A stretch of 64,000 nt of DNA from Escherichia phage T5. The stretch lies in the sequence record AY587007.1; one strand, given 5' to 3'. The notes under the pieces were generated by a model. That model saw only the letters and a program-made list of their open reading frames with translations, was not told where the DNA came from and made no database searches. Shown piece by piece: positions 6,417 to 41,500 of this stretch; within the stretch, counting starts at the first letter, position 1; every line of letters starts with the position of its first letter. A program made the translations under genes and the position numbers.

Positions 6417-7154
6417 ATGCGGCTATATAAACCAGATAACGCAACCGTCTTAAAGGGCGCCTTGCGCAACCTGCTGGATGGTAGCAGGACAACCAGCATT
6501 AAACATTTTATTAACAAGGCTGAAACTATTCACCAAAACTTTTTTAATGATTATGATGCCTATGATATGGATAGTTTTCTACCCCTATATAAGCAGGGGG
6601 CAACGATTATCTTATATAATCGTGATTGCCATATCTTTACGGGCAGGGGAGCGGGGCCGGATACTGATTTTATTGTTGCGCAGGGTAATAATATCGTTGC
6701 GTATCATAGCAATTCAGGCCGTCAATCATTTAATATAAATAATTTTGAGCTTGTTGGGCTTGAATTAATAAACGGACTTTCTAGCCTTGAGGGATTTTTA
6801 GATGTTATCTGGAAGTATTTATCTGCTGGATGGCATAGACCTGATAGTGATGGATCTCAATATACGGCTGTAATGGCTTTTGATGGCGACGGTAATTTTT
6901 TATTACCATCGGAATTATATCCGTATGTATATAATGAGCTAGTACAAGAAGCGGGTTTTATTTTCTGGAAAGATGAGAATCAGATCATTGACAACACGGA
7001 AAAACATGCTGTAAATTCTAACACTCAAAGCGTTAACACTCAAATCACTGAAAACAAAGGAAAAAATGCCATGACCAAGATCGCTAATATCGTTGCCGCT
7101 AATAAATCCGCCGTTGTAAATGCTGCAAAACTGGAAGCGGGCAAATTGCATTAA
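6417..7154 (+). CDS. hypothetical protein
   Basis: 245-aa ORF with strong RBS GAGGGAGG 7 nt upstream of ATG; first gene of the plus-strand block between the inverted repeats. Confidence 0.55.
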   Translation: MRLYKPDNATVLKGALRNLLDGSRTTSIKHFINKAETIHQNFFNDYDAYDMDSFLPLYKQGATIILYNRDCHIFTGRGAGPDTDFIVAQGNNIVAYHSNSGRQSFNINNFELVGLELINGLSSLEGFLDVIWKYLSAGWHRPDSDGSQYTAVMAFDGDGNFLLPSELYPYVYNELVQEAGFIFWKDENQIIDNTEKHAVNSNTQSVNTQITENKGKNAMTKIANIVAANKSAVVNAAKLEAGKLH

Positions 7155-7192
7155 CTCAAATCACGAAAGTAGCGGCTAAAAAAGCACCATTT

Positions 7193-7426
7193 ATGATTAA
7201 AGGTTATATTGATACGCCTATTGGTCGGGTAGTTATTGCTAACCTGCTGAGCGTAGCGGTTGACCAGTACGCCCCTAGCAACCAAAAGGCGAAAGCGGTA
7301 GCGGGTGCAGCTATGGAAGCGGCTATGCTAGAAATGGTGCAAAGTTTTAACATCGCTGAAATGATTGATGAAATGGTGAAAGGTATTGATATTTCTACTT
7401 TTACCGTTAACACCGAAAGCGAGTAA
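7193..7426 (+). CDS. hypothetical protein
   Basis: 77-aa ORF, weak RBS. Confidence 0.3.
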   Translation: MIKGYIDTPIGRVVIANLLSVAVDQYAPSNQKAKAVAGAAMEAAMLEMVQSFNIAEMIDEMVKGIDISTFTVNTESE

Positions 7427-7544: not shown

Positions 7545-7775
7545 ATGGTTGCTTATTCTTCTTCTGACGCTCTTTTCACTGGAAAAGGCTGGGTATCAAA
7601 TCGCTGGATCATTCAAGAAATGGTGCAGGAGTTCGGCATTGCTAAAACTTACACTACCATTCAGGCGCTTTATGATAATGATCAAATCGATCAGCAAACG
7701 GCGGGCTTTTTGCTGGATACCCTGAAAGCGGAACACTGTACTAAAAAACAAGCCGCCAAAATTGTTTTAATGTAA
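7545..7775 (+). CDS. hypothetical protein
   Basis: start moved to internal ATG preceded by GGAGG; 76 aa. Confidence 0.45.
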   Translation: MVAYSSSDALFTGKGWVSNRWIIQEMVQEFGIAKTYTTIQALYDNDQIDQQTAGFLLDTLKAEHCTKKQAAKIVLM

Positions 7776-7824
7776 TTAATAACGGGGCGTTACTTTCGCC
7801 CCACTAACTAGGGGAGTATTACAA

Positions 7825-8004
7825 ATGGTTATTTTTCGAGCTATTCTGGCAGGTATCTTGGGCGCTATTCTGACCCTTTTTGCTACCGCTTACGGTATTC
7901 AAGATTCTTATTGTGGTTTAGTAAATACTAAACCTATGGTTATTATTGGCGCGGGTATCGCTGTATTTTCTTATCTGCTGGGCTGCATGAATAAAGGAGA
8001 ATAA
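7825..8004 (+). CDS. small membrane protein (59 aa)
   Basis: ORF below the track size cut-off; RBS GGGGAG; two hydrophobic helices. Confidence 0.4.
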   Translation: MVIFRAILAGILGAILTLFATAYGIQDSYCGLVNTKPMVIIGAGIAVFSYLLGCMNKGE

Positions 8005-36997: not shown

Positions 36998-37075
36998 CTA
37001 CTTAAGTTGGTGGCTCCCCGAGGATTCGAACCTACGTACCTTCCAGTTATGAGCTGGGTGCTCATACCATATGAG
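36998..37075 (-). tRNA. tRNA with anticodon CAT (Met/fMet/Ile2 not resolved)
   Basis: good acceptor, D- and anticodon arms; T-stem only 3 bp. Confidence 0.5.
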
Positions 37076-37081
37076 CTTGAG

Positions 37082-37170
37082 AACCAGAATTTGGCGGAAG
37101 AAGTGGGAATCGAACCCACAAGGCTATATTTCAAACCGACAGATTAGCAATCTGCTGCAATACCGTTATG
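37082..37170 (-). tRNA. tRNA-Ser (anticodon GCT), type II
   Basis: 89 nt; anticodon loop TTGCTAA; long variable arm; perfect T-arm. Confidence 0.6.
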
Positions 37171-37184
37171 CTATTCTTCCGAAT

Positions 37185-37213
37185 TTATAAATATATTATA
37201 TTAGAAATTTAGC
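37185..37213 (-). promoter_or_regulatory. T5-type early promoter, -35 TTGCTA, 17 bp, -10 TATAAT
   Basis: hexamers on minus strand, positioned to transcribe the Ser/Met tRNAs. Confidence 0.55.
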
Positions 37214-37719
37214 TTCATAGCAAGAAAATTTTTCAAGTTTTCGGTAGACATCTCATCCACATCTACAGGGGAAACAAACCCATTTAACTGTCTAGCAAAC
37301 TTTTCGCCAGCAGGATCATTATCCCCAACAGCTACCAATTTAAAAGGTAGTAATTTCAATTGCTTTAATAGCGCTTTTCCTGGAGAAGAACCCAACATTG
37401 CCAGGGCTGGATAACCAGCGTTATGTAACGCAACTGCCTTAAATACAGATTCAGCAATCAATACTACTTTTTCATCTCCATTGAGAGTTTCTAGTCCCCA
37501 TACACACTGTGTAGTAGAATAAGTAAAATATCTAGCTTCAAGGGGGCACTTACCATGACCTTTTGGAGCAGAAGGATTATAAGTCTGATAGCCTCTCAAC
37601 ATCCCAGAGAAGTCATACAAGGGGACTGTTAGCCATCCTTCCGGGCTTAACCAGCAATGATATTTATCTGTATCAAACCCTCTAGATAAGAGATGTTCTG
37701 TTAGTTCATCAACAGTCAT
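37201..37719 (-). CDS. Toprim-domain protein
   Basis: 172 aa from ATG 37719 (RBS GAGAGAGGA); conserved Glu in VVLIAESVF and DxD in AVGDNDPAG as in Toprim folds. Confidence 0.4.
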   Translation of the reverse strand: MTVDELTEHLLSRGFDTDKYHCWLSPEGWLTVPLYDFSGMLRGYQTYNPSAPKGHGKCPLEARYFTYSTTQCVWGLETLNGDEKVVLIAESVFKAVALHNAGYPALAMLGSSPGKALLKQLKLLPFKLVAVGDNDPAGEKFARQLNGFVSPVDVDEMSTENLKNFLAMKLNF

Positions 37720-37749
37720 ATTAGATTCCTCTCTCAAATTTATAAATAT

Positions 37750-37778
37750 ATTATACAGAGAATTTAGCATTCAAGCAA
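37750..37778 (-). promoter_or_regulatory. T5-type early promoter, -35 TTGCTT, 17 bp, -10 TATAAT
   Basis: hexamers on minus strand. Confidence 0.55.
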
Positions 37779-37894: not shown

Positions 37895-37923
37895 TTGACA
37901 TTTTCTCCTGGGTAGTGTAAAGT
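37895..37923 (+). promoter_or_regulatory. plus-strand sigma70-like promoter, -35 TTGACA, 17 bp, -10 TAAAGT
   Basis: consensus -35; -10 keeps the T, A and final T positions; lies upstream of the plus-strand island. Confidence 0.4.
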
Positions 37924-37985
37924 ATATGTTATGGATGAGTGATCAAAGAGACACACATTTTCTATATACTAGGAGGTGTCAAAAA

Positions 37986-38393
37986 ATGACAGAAGAAGTA
38001 GCTAATAGTCCTGAGACCGTCGCTAGCGTTGCAGCAGAACTGCACCGTCACGAGGAATCAGATAAGAAAAAGTGGGAGAAGGTCAGAGCCTACGAAGAAG
38101 AACATTGTGAACACGATGATAAAGATGATGAACATTGTCATAAATATGGAAAACATAAAATGCAAGAACCAGTAAACGTATTTACTAACGGCTTCCCTGG
38201 CATGGGTGCATTCCCGGCTAACGCAGGTGCTTTCGGTGGTGAAGGTATGGGCCTATTCGGAGCTATCCTAATCGGTGCTCTATTAACAGGCGGATTTGGT
38301 GGTTTTGGTAGTTTTGTCGCGGTGCTGGCGTTGCCGCTGAAGGAACTGCTGTGGACGCGATCCTTTCTAACCAAGATACTGCAAGTATTCTAG
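37986..38393 (+). CDS. His/acidic N-terminus, Gly-rich hydrophobic C-terminus protein
   Basis: start at ATG 37986 with RBS AGGAGGT; segments HCEHDDKDDEHCH and GFPGMGAFPANAGAFGGEGMGLFGAILIGALLTGGFGGFG. Confidence 0.5.
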   Translation: MTEEVANSPETVASVAAELHRHEESDKKKWEKVRAYEEEHCEHDDKDDEHCHKYGKHKMQEPVNVFTNGFPGMGAFPANAGAFGGEGMGLFGAILIGALLTGGFGGFGSFVAVLALPLKELLWTRSFLTKILQVF

Positions 38394-38950
38394 CTGCAAT
38401 CAACACTACTCGTACAGAAGCTAACCAGGACACTGGGGCTGTTCTAAGCGCAGTAAACGGTGTGGGAGCTGCTCAAGCTGCTAGCACTCAGCAAGTTCTG
38501 ACTACTATCTACGGTACAGGTGCTAATCTGTCAAACCAGATCTGTGCTGAAACTCGTAACGTTATTCAGGGTCAGTTCGATCTTTCTCGTCAGATGGATC
38601 AATCTTTCGCTGCTAACCAGATCGCACGTGCTCAAGATAAGTTTGACTCTGCTCAGATTGCTTTCCAGCAGTCTATTCAGACTAACAACCAGTTTGCCGC
38701 TGTTCAGGCTCAGATGTGTGCTAACCAGAATGCTATAGAACGTCAGCTTGCTGAATGTTGCTGTGAGCTTCAGACTGCGATCGCCGGTGTAACTACTGCG
38801 CGTATCCAGGACGAACTGAATGAATGCCGTCTGCGCGAAGCAATCGCTGCAGGTAGCGGTGCAAATGGTCAGGTAATCAACCAAATCGCTGTAAGTCTTG
38901 GTGCTATCACTCAGACTCTGGCTGGTCTGCAGGCTAAACTGCCGGCTTAA
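38351..38950 (+). CDS. Ala/Gln-rich low-complexity protein
   Basis: GTG start with RBS AAGGA; overlaps the previous gene by 43 nt in the -1 frame; contains CCC triplet AECCCE. Confidence 0.4.
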   Translation: MDAILSNQDTASILAAINTTRTEANQDTGAVLSAVNGVGAAQAASTQQVLTTIYGTGANLSNQICAETRNVIQGQFDLSRQMDQSFAANQIARAQDKFDSAQIAFQQSIQTNNQFAAVQAQMCANQNAIERQLAECCCELQTAIAGVTTARIQDELNECRLREAIAAGSGANGQVINQIAVSLGAITQTLAGLQAKLPA

Positions 38951-38971
38951 AATTAAGGGGAGGAGTCCATT

Positions 38972-39388
38972 ATGAGTAAATATGGTTTTGTAAACAACGG
39001 ATTTAATCAACAAATGGGCTCCCAGCAGCCCGTTCCGGGTCTGGATAATCCTTACCTACAACAGTTGCAACAGCGTTTAGCAGAAGCGCAACAGATGCAG
39101 CAACAACTCCAGCAAAACCCTGGAAGTGTGAGTCCTATGCAAATGATGCAGCAAATGAGCGGGCAGTCGCAAATGCCTCAACAAATGCAGCAACAGGTGC
39201 CTCAGCAGCAAGTTCAGCAACAAACCCAACAACCGCAGGTTTCTGCGGAAGGACAGGCAGTACTAGCCCTTTTCGAAGATTTCGCAAAGACAGAGGATGG
39301 GAAACAGCTTGTATCACTTATGGGTAAGTTTAATAGCTTCTGCCAAAGCCAAGTTGCAAAAGCTCAAAATGGTGATAATAGCTCCTAA
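38972..39388 (+). CDS. Gln-rich low-complexity protein
   Basis: 138 aa with strong RBS AAGGGGAGGAG; long Q-rich runs. Confidence 0.5.
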   Translation: MSKYGFVNNGFNQQMGSQQPVPGLDNPYLQQLQQRLAEAQQMQQQLQQNPGSVSPMQMMQQMSGQSQMPQQMQQQVPQQQVQQQTQQPQVSAEGQAVLALFEDFAKTEDGKQLVSLMGKFNSFCQSQVAKAQNGDNSS

Positions 39389-39397
39389 GGAGGAATT

Positions 39398-39592
39398 ATG
39401 TGTTGCAGAAAATCTGTTTCGTGCTGCCCAATGCCTGTAGCACGTTGTTGCTCTCCAGCAATGTTTACACAAATACCGGCGTTCAATCCCTTTGCCTTTA
39501 AGCCTACTCTTATCCTGCCCCCTAGAGTAGATTTTCAGTCAAGATTGGCCTCCCGTATGGGTGGTTGCTGTAATAAGAGTATATGGTTCTAA
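39398..39592 (+). CDS. Cys-rich small protein
   Basis: 64 aa with RBS AAGGAGG; CC doublets (MCC, SCC, RCC, GCC). Confidence 0.5.
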   Translation: MCCRKSVSCCPMPVARCCSPAMFTQIPAFNPFAFKPTLILPPRVDFQSRLASRMGGCCNKSIWF

Positions 39593-39609
39593 AGAACCAA
39601 TAATAAAAA

Positions 39610-39641
39610 CCCCTAGTCGAAAGACTTAGGGGTTTTCTTTT
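39610..39641 (+). terminator. rho-independent terminator
   Basis: hairpin CCCCTAGTC-GAAA-GACTTAGGGG followed by TTTTCTTTT. Confidence 0.6.
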
Positions 39642-39688
39642 ATCTTAAATACAGAAAAGCCCTGCGCTCTCCAGGGAACACAGGGCTT
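39641..39688 (-). terminator. probable rho-independent terminator for the SPFH gene
   Basis: 8-bp stem AAGCCCTG/CAGGGCTT, then U-rich run on the minus-strand RNA. Confidence 0.4.
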
Positions 39689-40693: not shown

Positions 40694-40768
40694 TGGCCGA
40701 GGTGACAGGATTCGAACCTGCATAAAGGAATTTAGAAGACTCCTGCCTCTCCCTTAGACTACACCCCG
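40694..40768 (-). tRNA. tRNA-Arg (anticodon TCT)
   Basis: clean cloverleaf; anticodon stem GGAGT/ATTCC; CCA encoded. Confidence 0.65.
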
Positions 40769-40996: not shown

Positions 40997-41352
40997 TGGT
41001 TATACACTGCATATACGAGTGCTCGGTTAGGTTAGGGTCATGACTCCCTACCTTTTGCTGCCCTCAACAGGAGTTATCGCGCGTTTACCTGTATGTTGTG
41101 CACCATTAGTCACGACTTTCACGTGATCCTTTCCCACTTTGTTGGTAGCTTGAAAAACTACTCCGATATGGAGGAAAAACTTCACTACCTAGAATACCTT
41201 CTAAAGTTCTTCTTTAGCCTGGACATAGTTAAATCGTAATAAAACTATTCAGCAGACTGGTTGGTTAGTCTGGAACCAACTACCGCGTGGTTTAGGCAGT
41301 GCGCAACTAACCTCGGAAGCTTTTACGTTAAAAGCACCAGTTATCCAGTTCT

Positions 41353-41424
41353 TACCGACCGTAGGATTCGAACCTACATCTTCCACCAGTTACGGCTTGA
41401 TAATACCGTTTATACTAGGTCGGC
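41353..41424 (-). other. tRNA-like element without CCA, no canonical anticodon arm
   Basis: good acceptor pairing and perfect T-arm (GTAGG TTCGAAT CCTAC); middle does not fold as D plus anticodon arms. Confidence 0.3.
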
Positions 41425-41500
41425 AGTGTTACTACATAAGTGATTTCCACACCCCACTATCAATAAATTAGAGAAGAATTACTCTCTAATTTATGAATAT

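Follow-up and report, generated by a model that had tools for sequence, protein, structure and literature searches.

The T5.077-T5.078-T5.079 operon of phage T5, a candidate accessory system with conserved cysteines

Closest described systems

Phage morons, such as HK97 gp15 and lambda bor/lom, are autonomous accessory units inserted between the genes of another operon. The locus described here, a cassette of three genes in the tRNA region of phage T5, resembles them in its own promoter and terminator, its mostly opposite orientation to the flanking genes, its presence or absence with clean boundaries, its deviant GC content, and its dispensability. The own promoter and terminator, the polymorphism –with collinear flanks– and the deviant composition are features by which morons are recognized. 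Unlike morons, the cassette comprises three genes rather than one, occurs mainly in virulent phages (T5-like, N4-like, and KPP23) and hardly in bacterial genomes, and encodes products without sequence relation to any known moron product.

The cassette also shares its neighborhood with the anti-defense genes of the T5 tRNA region (rad, tRNA-Tyr, and ORF71-72 of SP15). T5.076, which adjoins it, is the anti-retron gene rad, and the tRNA-rich region, the source of the cloned fragment F9, has several counter-defense functions. Like these genes, the cassette is accessory and under an early-type promoter. In contrast to them, fragment F9, which holds the T5.077 and T5.078 homologues but lacks T5.079, gave no rescue from retrons Eco2 and Eco7. 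Besides, the products of the cassette are predicted to be membrane-associated and have no homology to rad or PADLOC models. In a CRISPRi-ART screen, T5.077, T5.078, and T5.079 were all "Not Fit", that is, dispensable in the laboratory host (PMC11879866). Literature searches by name retrieved nothing on T5.077-079, and the HIDEN-SEQ and transposon-mutagenesis preprints contained no T5 gene data.

Spanins (Rz/Rz1) and T4 PseT.3/PseT.2 combine a larger anchored long-helix protein with Cys, like T5.077, and a small Pro-rich, Cys-containing partner of ~60 aa encoded alongside, like T5.079. However, T5.079 has neither a lipoprotein signal nor a lipobox, the cassette lies outside the lysis cassette and has a third, P/Q-rich partner, and in lambdoid contigs it co-exists with genuine Rz genes, on the strand opposite to holin, lysozyme, and Rz. 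Spanin identity was rejected given the missing lipobox, the early sigma-70-type setting, and the lack of any match to spanin families (e.g., PF03245) in Pfam or PHROG.

Influenza HA2 and HEF2 present a Gly-rich hydrophobic peptide (GLFGAILIGALL in T5.077 vs. GLFGAIAGFIE) followed by a long coiled coil. Unlike class I fusion subunits, T5.077 lacks a C-terminal membrane anchor, a cleavage site, and a second heptad repeat, and the resemblance is probably convergent composition.

Vicinal cysteines are found in the GPCC interchain knot of collagen III, in the CC pairs of ArsD and MerT, and in metallothioneins. The cassette has CC, CCC, a G-x-CC ending, and CC-x6-CC, an analogy at the motif level with no homology. 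By this analogy, its CC and CCC motifs seem suited to interchain disulfide knots or soft-metal binding.

Operon layout and gene count

The window –the whole stretch of 64,000 nt analyzed here, from AY587007.1– presented 99.8% identity to NC_005859 (phage T5). The unit at 37895-39641 corresponds to T5.077-T5.078-T5.079 of phage T5, an operon that forms a discrete accessory cassette of ~1.7 kb with a host-type (sigma-70) promoter and a terminator of its own. Its features and flanks are:

37895..37923, plus strand: promoter P12, with -35 TTGACA (37895-37900), a 17-nt spacer, and -10 TAAAGT (37918-37923)
37971..37976, plus strand: Shine-Dalgarno AGGAGG of T5.077, before ATG 37986; annotated ribosome-binding site in BF23
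37986..38316, plus strand: 5' part of T5.077 in the original frame, encoding an N-terminal helix rich in His and acidic residues and the Gly-rich hydrophobic segment
38311..38317, plus strand: frameshift site, GTTTTGGT in reference T5 and GTTTTGT in the window
38317..38950, plus strand: 3' part of T5.077 in the -1 frame, listed as an ORF from GTG (38351-38950); Ala/Gln/Asn-rich helical domain with CCC
38959..38963, plus strand: Shine-Dalgarno GGAGG of T5.078, before ATG 38972
38972..39388, plus strand: T5.078, 138 aa, with a Gln-rich linker and a conserved C-terminal domain with an invariant Cys
39387..39393, plus strand: Shine-Dalgarno AAGGAGG of T5.079, before ATG 39398; overlaps the T5.078 stop codon
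39398..39592, plus strand: T5.079, 64 aa, with an MCC start, CC-x6-CC, a Pro/Phe-rich middle, and a C-terminal GGCC
39606..39643, plus strand: Rho-independent terminator, stem-loop 39606-39636 followed by a T-run
37011-37085, 37092-37180, and 40694-40768, minus strand: flanking tRNA genes

The first-pass annotation had described a self-contained plus-strand transcription unit with a TTGACA promoter, strong ribosome-binding sites, and a clean terminator, interrupting the minus-strand tRNA region, and all of this holds. P12 is the best sigma-70-like match of the region (10/12), has an A/T-rich stretch upstream, and is annotated as a promoter in both T5 and BF23. Promoter and 5' UTR presented 97% identity among T5-like phages, where the dS of the T5.077 coding sequence is ~0.5. 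The terminator hairpin has a folding energy of -18 kcal/mol (z = -4.4), and it is annotated in T5 and BF23 as efficient and bidirectional. No RNA family was found within the cassette using Rfam.

That annotation had also counted four proteins, which needs correcting: there are three genes, and ORF 1 (37986-38393) and ORF 2 (38351-38950), which overlap in the window, are the halves of T5.077. The indel it suspected between them does exist. Relative to NC_005859/AY543070, a single G is missing from the window at 38316 (TTTTGG to TTTTG), so that the first gene of the operon is broken in this sequence by a 1-nt deletion. The original frame continues to a stop at 38393 and gives 135 aa, with a 25-aa out-of-frame tail. 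ORF 2 has a GTG start, and its sole candidate ribosome-binding site is a chance AAGGA within coding sequence.

T5.077 is one CDS of 321 aa in reference T5 and of 326 aa in BF23, and it is intact in 18 of the 19 T5-like loci fetched. The primer fTRR9, published for its cloning, confirms where it starts. In 217 of 222 phage records, at least 80% of the protein is matched at one place, although such a place may combine pieces from different frames. Another record (L023) has a second, independent frameshift in the same Gly-codon repeat region, and the T5.077 of the window has a unique Gly-to-Asp change 115 nt from its own frameshift. Programmed frameshifting was considered and rejected, because relatives encode T5.077 in a single unbroken frame.

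Conserved proteins in a mobile cassette

The proteins belong to no characterized family, as the first-pass annotation had stated. Pfam, NCBIfam, and PADLOC scans of T5.077, T5.078, and T5.079 gave only sub-threshold noise (0 families for PADLOC), and PDB sequence searches, single or with profiles, retrieved nothing significant. T5.077 and T5.078 matched PHROG families over their full length (phrog_8119, E = 1e-191, and phrog_7894, E = 4e-80, respectively), both uncharacterized, and T5.079 had no PHROG match. More specifically, Gly-zipper Pfam models (e.g., PF05433) matched neither T5.077 at E <= 1 nor ten of its relatives at E <= 0.1, and no match to T4-type holin T or to the antiholins RI and RIII was found in Pfam, PHROG, or NCBIfam. 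Homology to structural or housekeeping proteins, which would have spoken against an unusual system, was looked for and none was found.

The composition described at first sight was accurate: a His/acidic N-terminus, a Gly-rich hydrophobic stretch, and an Ala/Gln-rich region with CCC (all in T5.077), a protein with 28% Gln, and a 64-aa protein with four CC doublets. The label "low-complexity", however, undersells these genes, which are conserved, selected, and have defined motifs common to unrelated phage lineages. The dN/dS ratio was ~0.15 for T5.077 and ~0.1-0.3 for T5.078, and changes in T5.079 were almost exclusively synonymous; judged from these substitution patterns, all three genes are under purifying selection.

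Members of the T5.077 family, ~300 aa long, combine a hydrophobic segment rich in glycine with a long helical domain, and CCC (residues 258-260 in the intact T5.077) is invariant among them. The His-rich tract is conserved only among the T5-like members, and reads HHYHHHHHEH in the His-rich N-domain of the EscoHU1 homologue. The Gly-rich segment (residues ~67-118) is the sole hydrophobic one, and hydropathy together with flanking charges predicted T5.077 to be membrane-associated. Applied to the short-form relatives, the positive-inside rule weakly favors a cytoplasmic C-domain, in which case the long forms, whose N-domain is highly charged, would need a hairpin or a monotopic anchor.

For a T5.077 homologue, AlphaFold2 gave an unusable model with a 20-sequence alignment (pLDDT 45.7) and, with a 40-sequence alignment, a model of moderate confidence (pLDDT 63, pTM 0.25) made entirely of long helices. 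The first Cys of CCC lies in register on the hydrophobic seam of the T5.077 helix. Foldseek gave nothing at E < 0.8 against either PDB or BFVD, with Vipp1 and vimentin as the top, non-significant PDB results. The best PDB matches of the family profile were HA2 (E = 0.043) and HEF2 (E = 0.26), both below significance, and their alignments place the fusion peptide on the Gly-rich segment.

Across phages, T5.078 relatives are P/Q-rich proteins of ~100-145 aa with an invariant Cys, and the C-terminal domain of T5.078 presents the motif ALFE.F..TEDGKQL...KFN.FCQS. The label "cAMP-dependent protein kinase" on some homologues is an artefact. T5.079-like peptides elsewhere have 49-91 aa and start with MCC, MCGC, or MSCNC; they lie downstream of a T5.078 homologue in seven other loci. 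A profile search retrieved only three clusters of them, because ORFs so small are seldom called. Neither T5.078 nor T5.079 has an N-terminal hydrophobic signal-like segment: the N-terminus of T5.079 (MCCRKSVSCC) leaves only 8 residues before the first candidate Cys, with no hydrophobic region, and its homologues likewise lack one before the candidate Cys. Conserved Cys are present in all three proteins.

All three genes recur, in unchanged order, in Pseudomonas phage KPP23 (a siphovirus), in an N4-like contig beside tRNA genes, in lambdoid contigs on the opposite strand, with the Q antiterminator on one side and the holin gene on the other, and in contigs L012, L075, and L076, distant T5-sized contigs being among the backgrounds. 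The existing annotation of KPP23 ORF072 uses the wrong frame. The trio is an opposite-strand island in most backgrounds examined, and both gene order and motifs are kept across unrelated lineages at 35-55% identity. T5.077 and T5.078 co-occur, with 222 phage records each. These comparisons show one conserved cassette that has passed among five or more unrelated phage backgrounds.

Among T5-like phages, 217 of 418 matching records carry the cassette, and about half keep only its terminator end. SHSML-45 presents a clean deletion of window positions ~37956-39638 that leaves the promoter over, and rad and the SPFH gene directly adjoin where the cassette is missing. The GC content of the cassette is 47% in T5 (vs. 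38% in the flanks) and exceeds that of the flanks in all 8 backgrounds; this excess may partly reflect the Ala/Gly/Gln-rich products. The SPFH protein T5.080 was considered as a fourth member and rejected, being on the other strand, absent from the cassette in other phages, and retained in SHSML-45 despite the deletion.

Beyond phages, 185,579 representative bacterial and archaeal genomes contained no long-form relative and one short-form relative, and the lambdoid cassette had no megablast match in complete E. coli genomes. Distant short-form relatives have another partner and lie within or next to tail and morphogenesis clusters, a setting that would fit other roles too. His-rich proteins are also among the neighbors of short-form relatives.

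Possible roles of the cassette

Our preferred reading, tentative and still short of probable, is a membrane-tethered complex, made early and linked through thiols, with a role in conflict between phage and host or between phages. The host polymerase would transcribe the operon early in infection, the glycine-rich hydrophobic segment would tether T5.077 to the inner membrane, and its helical domain of ~200 residues would let it oligomerize. T5.078, with one invariant Cys, and T5.079, with its CC doublets, would join it in a complex whose thiol link could be metal-bridged or disulfide-bridged, most likely at the cytoplasmic face of the membrane. Both the complex and its thiol chemistry are deduced solely from the co-occurrence of the genes and the conservation of their motifs. 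Such a complex would be unneeded for basic phage growth and would most likely serve in conflict, either neutralizing some host defense or excluding competing phages. We favor counter-defense on two grounds: the T5 cassette adjoins anti-defense genes that experiments have defined in the tRNA-rich region, and bacterial genomes are essentially devoid of the family. Counting against it, membrane-anchored counter-defense proteins are uncommon, F9 gave a null result against both retrons, and PADLOC had no match.

Superinfection exclusion as such seems unlikely to us. An early membrane complex, or one made from the promoter of a lambdoid element, would block DNA entry or envelope penetration of other phages, like T4 Imm/Sp and HK97 gp15; the predicted anchor of T5.077, the own promoter and terminator, the dispensability for growth, the antisense position of the lambdoid cassettes in the Q-holin gap –a classic moron site– and the short-form relatives just after tail genes, a frequent place of cor-type and sie-type genes, are consistent with it. 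However, a family nearly absent from representative bacterial genomes is no common prophage conversion gene, the phages that carry it differ in receptors and hosts (E. coli, Salmonella, and Pseudomonas), and exclusion proteins, where known, tend to be small membrane proteins encoded singly and devoid of Cys clusters. An accessory role in envelope or lysis is quite improbable, although a fusion-peptide-like Gly-rich segment followed by a long helix, the weak HA2 and HEF2 profile matches (E = 0.04-0.3), the Vipp1 and vimentin results, cysteines that recall spanin disulfides, and the proximity to lambdoid lysis cassettes would suit a membrane-active coiled coil –spanin-, holin-, or fusion-protein-like– cross-linked by Cys and tuning lysis or the membrane state. 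All those structural and profile matches fall short of significance, Pfam gave no holin or spanin match, and T5.079 has no signal peptide or lipobox. The early sigma-70-type promoter and the strand opposite to lysis genes also argue against this role, lambdoid contigs with the cassette already have holin, lysozyme, and Rz genes, and half of the T5-like phages lyse without it.

Cys3 metal sites are known from three-stranded coiled coils, which the seam position of the first triplet Cys recalls. Together with the conserved Cys of all three proteins, the CC-x6-CC and C-terminal G-x-CC motifs, the His-rich N-domain of T5-like T5.077 members, and the His-rich neighbors of the short forms, this could point to a module for soft-metal or cluster binding, or for thiol buffering during infection, built from the Cys triplet, the CC doublets, and the His-rich N-terminus. 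We consider it very unlikely, since the His-rich tract is unconserved outside T5-like members, no metal-binding family was matched, and no obvious benefit accounts for the horizontal spread. A virion, ejection, or morphogenesis protein would agree with the short-form relatives within or after tail and head-tail clusters and with the long coiled coil, but it is highly implausible for a cassette in the early region of T5 under a -35/-10 promoter that is dispensable and missing from half of the close relatives. Finally, non-functional low-complexity ORFs or a decaying remnant might be suspected in the window, with its frameshift and unique Gly-to-Asp change so close together, and in L023, frameshifted in the same region, the genes being dispensable. 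This reading has next to no credibility and is refuted for the family as a whole: selection is strongly purifying, nearly all T5-like loci fetched are intact, and order and motifs persist across unrelated lineages.

Going one step further than the preferred conflict complex, the operon might be the founding member of a new, horizontally mobile three-component system, in which a membrane-tethered coiled-coil oligomer is bridged by its invariant Cys triplet, through metal or disulfide, to a CC-doublet micropeptide and a P/Q-rich adaptor. T5-like, N4-like, lambdoid, and Pseudomonas phages would share it for counter-defense or exclusion. We regard this as possible but doubtful. More broadly, T5.077-079 is a good candidate for a new accessory system.

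Practical corrections also follow for work on this locus: T5.077 is one gene, interrupted in the window by a 1-nt deletion, and the published F9 test omitted T5.079. T5 is a model phage, yet T5.077-079 are still labeled hypothetical. What were three orphan ORFs are now one conserved cassette, and hence a testable system. Its chemistry, with CCC on a coiled-coil seam and a micropeptide starting with MCC, would be unusual for a bacterial cytoplasmic or membrane complex. Moreover, it is dispensable in defense-poor laboratory hosts and lies beside proven counter-defense genes, traits that have repeatedly led to new anti-defense or exclusion mechanisms.

Layout of the locus and gene count

The 1.9-kb region matched Escherichia phage T5 (NC_005859/AY543070) at 99.8% identity and BF23 at 97%; window positions equal NC_005859/AY543070 record positions minus 78. 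The T5.077-T5.078-T5.079 cassette comprises:

37895-37923, plus strand: promoter P12, TTGACA-17-TAAAGT, annotated in the T5 and BF23 records
37986 (ATG), plus strand: T5.077, 321 aa in the T5 record, in the window 37986-38393 plus 38351-38950
38972-39388, plus strand: T5.078, annotated CDS of 138 aa
39398 (ATG), plus strand: T5.079, annotated CDS of 64 aa
39606-39636 and T-run, plus strand: terminator hairpin, -18 kcal/mol, z = -4.4

The first-pass annotation had described a plus-strand island amid minus-strand tRNA genes, with its own TTGACA promoter, a terminator and four genes with strong ribosome-binding sites. The promoter was indeed the top sigma-70-type match of the region, and the T5 and BF23 records call the terminator an "efficient bidirectional rho-independent terminator". 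Minus-strand tRNA genes lie on either side; in the T5 and BF23 records the unit has T5.076 (minus strand) and its tRNA genes on one flank, and T5.080 (minus strand, SPFH "lipoprotein") and tRNA-Arg on the opposite flank. The protein compositions had been described accurately. Strong Shine-Dalgarno sequences precede the starts at 37986, 38972 and 39398, but the genes are three.

The first two ORFs overlap in the -1 frame, as claimed, and the suspected indel was found by alignment to NC_005859: one of three differences is a G missing at 38316 (TTTTGG to TTTTG), because of which T5.077 reads as two ORFs. The gene is normally a single intact ORF, as in reference T5, BF23 and 18 of the 19 T5-like loci taken from IMG/VR, and in 217 of 222 phage records a match spanned 80% or more of the protein at a single place, which may combine pieces from different frames. 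The only other broken copy among the fetched loci (L023) also shifts within the Gly-codon repeats, so this region may be prone to slippage or sequencing error. A window-unique Gly-to-Asp change lies 115 nt downstream of 38316, at a site where every T5-like homologue has Gly. Either sequencing error or laboratory-stock decay may account for the window frameshift.

Compared with reference T5, dN/dS was ~0.15 for T5.077 (dS up to 0.59) and ~0.1-0.3 for T5.078, and T5.079 differences were almost all synonymous, except for one C-terminal block variant. By these substitution patterns, all three are real genes. The promoter and 5' UTR were 97% identical where T5.077 dS was ~0.5. When 37986-39592 was compared with L022-L034, dS between T5 and SP15-type phages was ~0.45-0.5 for T5.077 and just 0.05-0.18 for T5.078/T5.079; together with the 97% identity of promoter and 5' UTR, this points to either a recombination mosaic or an added constraint on the nucleotide sequence.

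Around the cassette, the divergent neighbour T5.076 (37201-37770, minus strand) is annotated as "DNA primase" (Toprim-like) and has been published as the anti-retron gene rad. The tRNA-Ile2(CAU) of NC_005859 (37011-37085, minus strand) was missed by ARAGORN and matched Rfam with 38 bits. The annotated 719-nt stable "RNAX" contains a tRNA-like element (41352-41425, minus strand), called tRNA-Ser(act) by ARAGORN and scoring 38 bits with the Rfam tRNA model. The minus-strand terminator hairpin of T5.080 (39657-39688) contains the annotated major single-strand interruption of T5 DNA, with the nick at 39668/39669, ~30 nt past the cassette's own terminator.

Families and distribution among phages

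Pfam, NCBIfam and PADLOC gave no match for the three proteins, and PHROGs placed T5.077 (8119) and T5.078 (7894) in function-unknown families and had no match for T5.079, in line with the first-pass annotation, which recognised no characterised family. PDB sequence searches gave no significant match. The AlphaFold2 model of a T5.077 homologue (40-sequence alignment; overall pLDDT 63, pTM 0.25) predicted an N-terminal helix at residues 12-47 (pLDDT >90), then disorder across the Gly-rich stretch, and long helices towards the C-terminus, one of ~100 residues; Foldseek found no significant neighbour in PDB or BFVD. A likeness to influenza HA2, Gly-rich "fusion peptide" then coiled coil (E = 0.04), serves here as an analogy and does not argue for homology.

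The T5.077 family shares an (A)AEL.RHE helix, a PVNVFT-type motif, a Gly-rich hydrophobic segment with an Arg after it, an Asn/Gln/Ala-rich helical domain, an invariant CCC and C-terminal NGQVINQIAVSLGAITQTLAALQAK. The T5.078 family has a short helix, a P/Q-rich linker and LFE.F..TEDGKQL...KFN.FCQS, including an invariant Cys. T5.079 relatives start with MCC, MCGC or MSCNC, followed by a second CC (often CC-x6-CC), a Pro/Phe-rich middle and often a C-terminal G-x-CC. Several GenBank records call the homologue of T5.078 (38972-39388) "cAMP-dependent protein kinase catalytic subunit", a label that almost certainly arose artefactually from the Gln-rich stretch. Another protein (P0176), identical across 99% of T5.078, was filed from a 1.6-kb contig as a hypothetical protein of Enterococcus faecalis; that assembly is probably contaminated with phage DNA.

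With tblastn, intact T5.077 matched Pseudomonas phage KPP23, which has three consecutive genes of the same type: a 320-aa protein retaining the T5.077 architecture and CCC, a 143-aa protein with the T5.078 C-terminal motif and, directly next, a 60-aa ORF (MCCNQPVPQCCGP...GRCCKKFDCC) in a different frame from annotated ORF072. The trio kept its order in a 71-kb N4-like contig, adjoining three minus-strand tRNA genes and with minus-strand genes either side; in two lambdoid contig types, between the Q antiterminator and holin-lysozyme-Rz, on the opposite strand; and as plus-strand islands amid minus-strand genes in a 57-kb contig (L012) and two T5-sized yet distant contigs (L075, L076). Across these lineages, the large protein was 36-53% identical to T5.077. 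Homologues of T5.077 and T5.078 each occurred in 222 phage records, with a matching breakdown by organism name. By their shared order and motifs, the three genes form a conserved cassette.

In KPP23 (AB910392; L003 6969-7151), the annotated ORF072 (GTG, 64 aa) uses the wrong frame; what is conserved is the overlapping 60-aa MCC... ORF, whose phage RSP homologue is named "alpha/beta hydrolase like protein". One lambdoid contig (L013) carries two paralogous ~145-aa genes (...PGYP... family; 6751-7260 and 7547-7978) after the cassette on the same strand.

An exhaustive profile search (E <= 1e-3) retrieved 297 representative proteins, the majority being "short forms" of 240-290 aa (function-unknown PHROGs 9288 and 16490) that have the Gly-rich segment, CCC and C-terminal helices and lack the charged N-domain. 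Their conserved partner differs, a ~97-aa protein (MASPI...RFQNTG...IYLKK...YET), and their genes are frequently inside or after tail/morphogenesis gene clusters. A His-rich protein (phrog_9157) follows the short form in Edwardsiella phage eiAU (L014 5496-5861) and Klebsiella phage RCIP0096 (L015 5550-5870), reminiscent of the His-rich N-domain that T5-like phages have fused to T5.077. Two family searches of 185,579 representative bacterial and archaeal genomes gave 0 and 1 matches. The family is essentially confined to phages.

Accessory status and published experiments

The cassette is a discrete accessory element. Of 418 phage records with a match anywhere in the region, 217 contained it, and the rest mostly matched the last ~140 nt alone. 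Shigella phage SHSML-45 is collinear with T5, lacks ~37956-39638 and retains a P12 remnant and the minus-strand terminator; in EPS7, NMN-salvage genes occupy the slot. Cassette GC was 47% versus 38% in the T5 flanks, and exceeded flank GC in 8/8 backgrounds.

When every T5 gene was knocked down by CRISPRi-ART, T5.077, T5.078 and T5.079 each scored "Not Fit" and were annotated unknown; T5.076, listed as the anti-retron gene, scored "Semi-Fit" (PMC11879866, supplementary files 8 and 16). Azam et al. divided into nine fragments an ~8-kb tRNA-rich region that is spontaneously lost in T5n and SP15m and that their preprint calls an "anti-defense island". The F9 primers map to 37986-38016 and 39357-39388, and therefore F9 holds T5.077 and T5.078 without T5.079. 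Of the nine fragments, F6 and F8 alone rescued phage from the tested retrons according to the published paper; the preprint adds rescue from Ec83 by F7 and F8, and F9 was not reported active.

Proposed mechanism and biological role

T5.077 has one hydrophobic segment (19-residue Kyte-Doolittle mean 1.2-1.9), and this Gly-rich segment would be a hairpin or monotopic anchor in long forms, which carry the charged N-domain. Short forms have an N-tail nearly free of positive charge and a conserved Arg after the segment, a pattern weakly in favour of a cytoplasmic C-domain. If the three proteins' conserved cysteines cooperate, they must be in one compartment; as neither T5.078 nor T5.079 has an N-terminal hydrophobic, signal-like segment, this would again be the cytoplasmic face. 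A hydrophobic seam runs at -14, -10, -7, -3, 0 and +4 relative to the Cys triplet in the family alignment, and as it includes position 0, it puts the first Cys in the core of a coiled coil or helical bundle. Because of the anchor segment, the topology reasoning and the Cys on the seam, we propose, with low confidence, a membrane-tethered oligomer with a cysteine layer, forming a metal or disulfide bridge to small partners.

The ORFs, promoter and terminator have been in the annotation since 2004, and these features are not new in themselves. We found no report of the three genes as one conserved, horizontally mobile cassette common to unrelated phage lineages, of the micropeptide as a real gene that annotations of other phages get wrong or leave uncalled, or of the family's invariant cysteine motifs and membership in a larger phage-only superfamily. 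Because no known family or system matches, we rate the cassette as a candidate accessory system that is new in kind.

By established knowledge of T5 promoter classes, the consensus -35 box marks P12 as an early-class T5 promoter used by the host polymerase. For the cassette's role, the main rival explanation is superinfection exclusion, and a lysis or envelope, a metal or redox, or a structural role is less likely. We consider a role in conflict the most likely, since the cassette is accessory, mobile, phage-only, driven by an early-type promoter and dispensable on K-12, and adjoins proven counter-defence genes.
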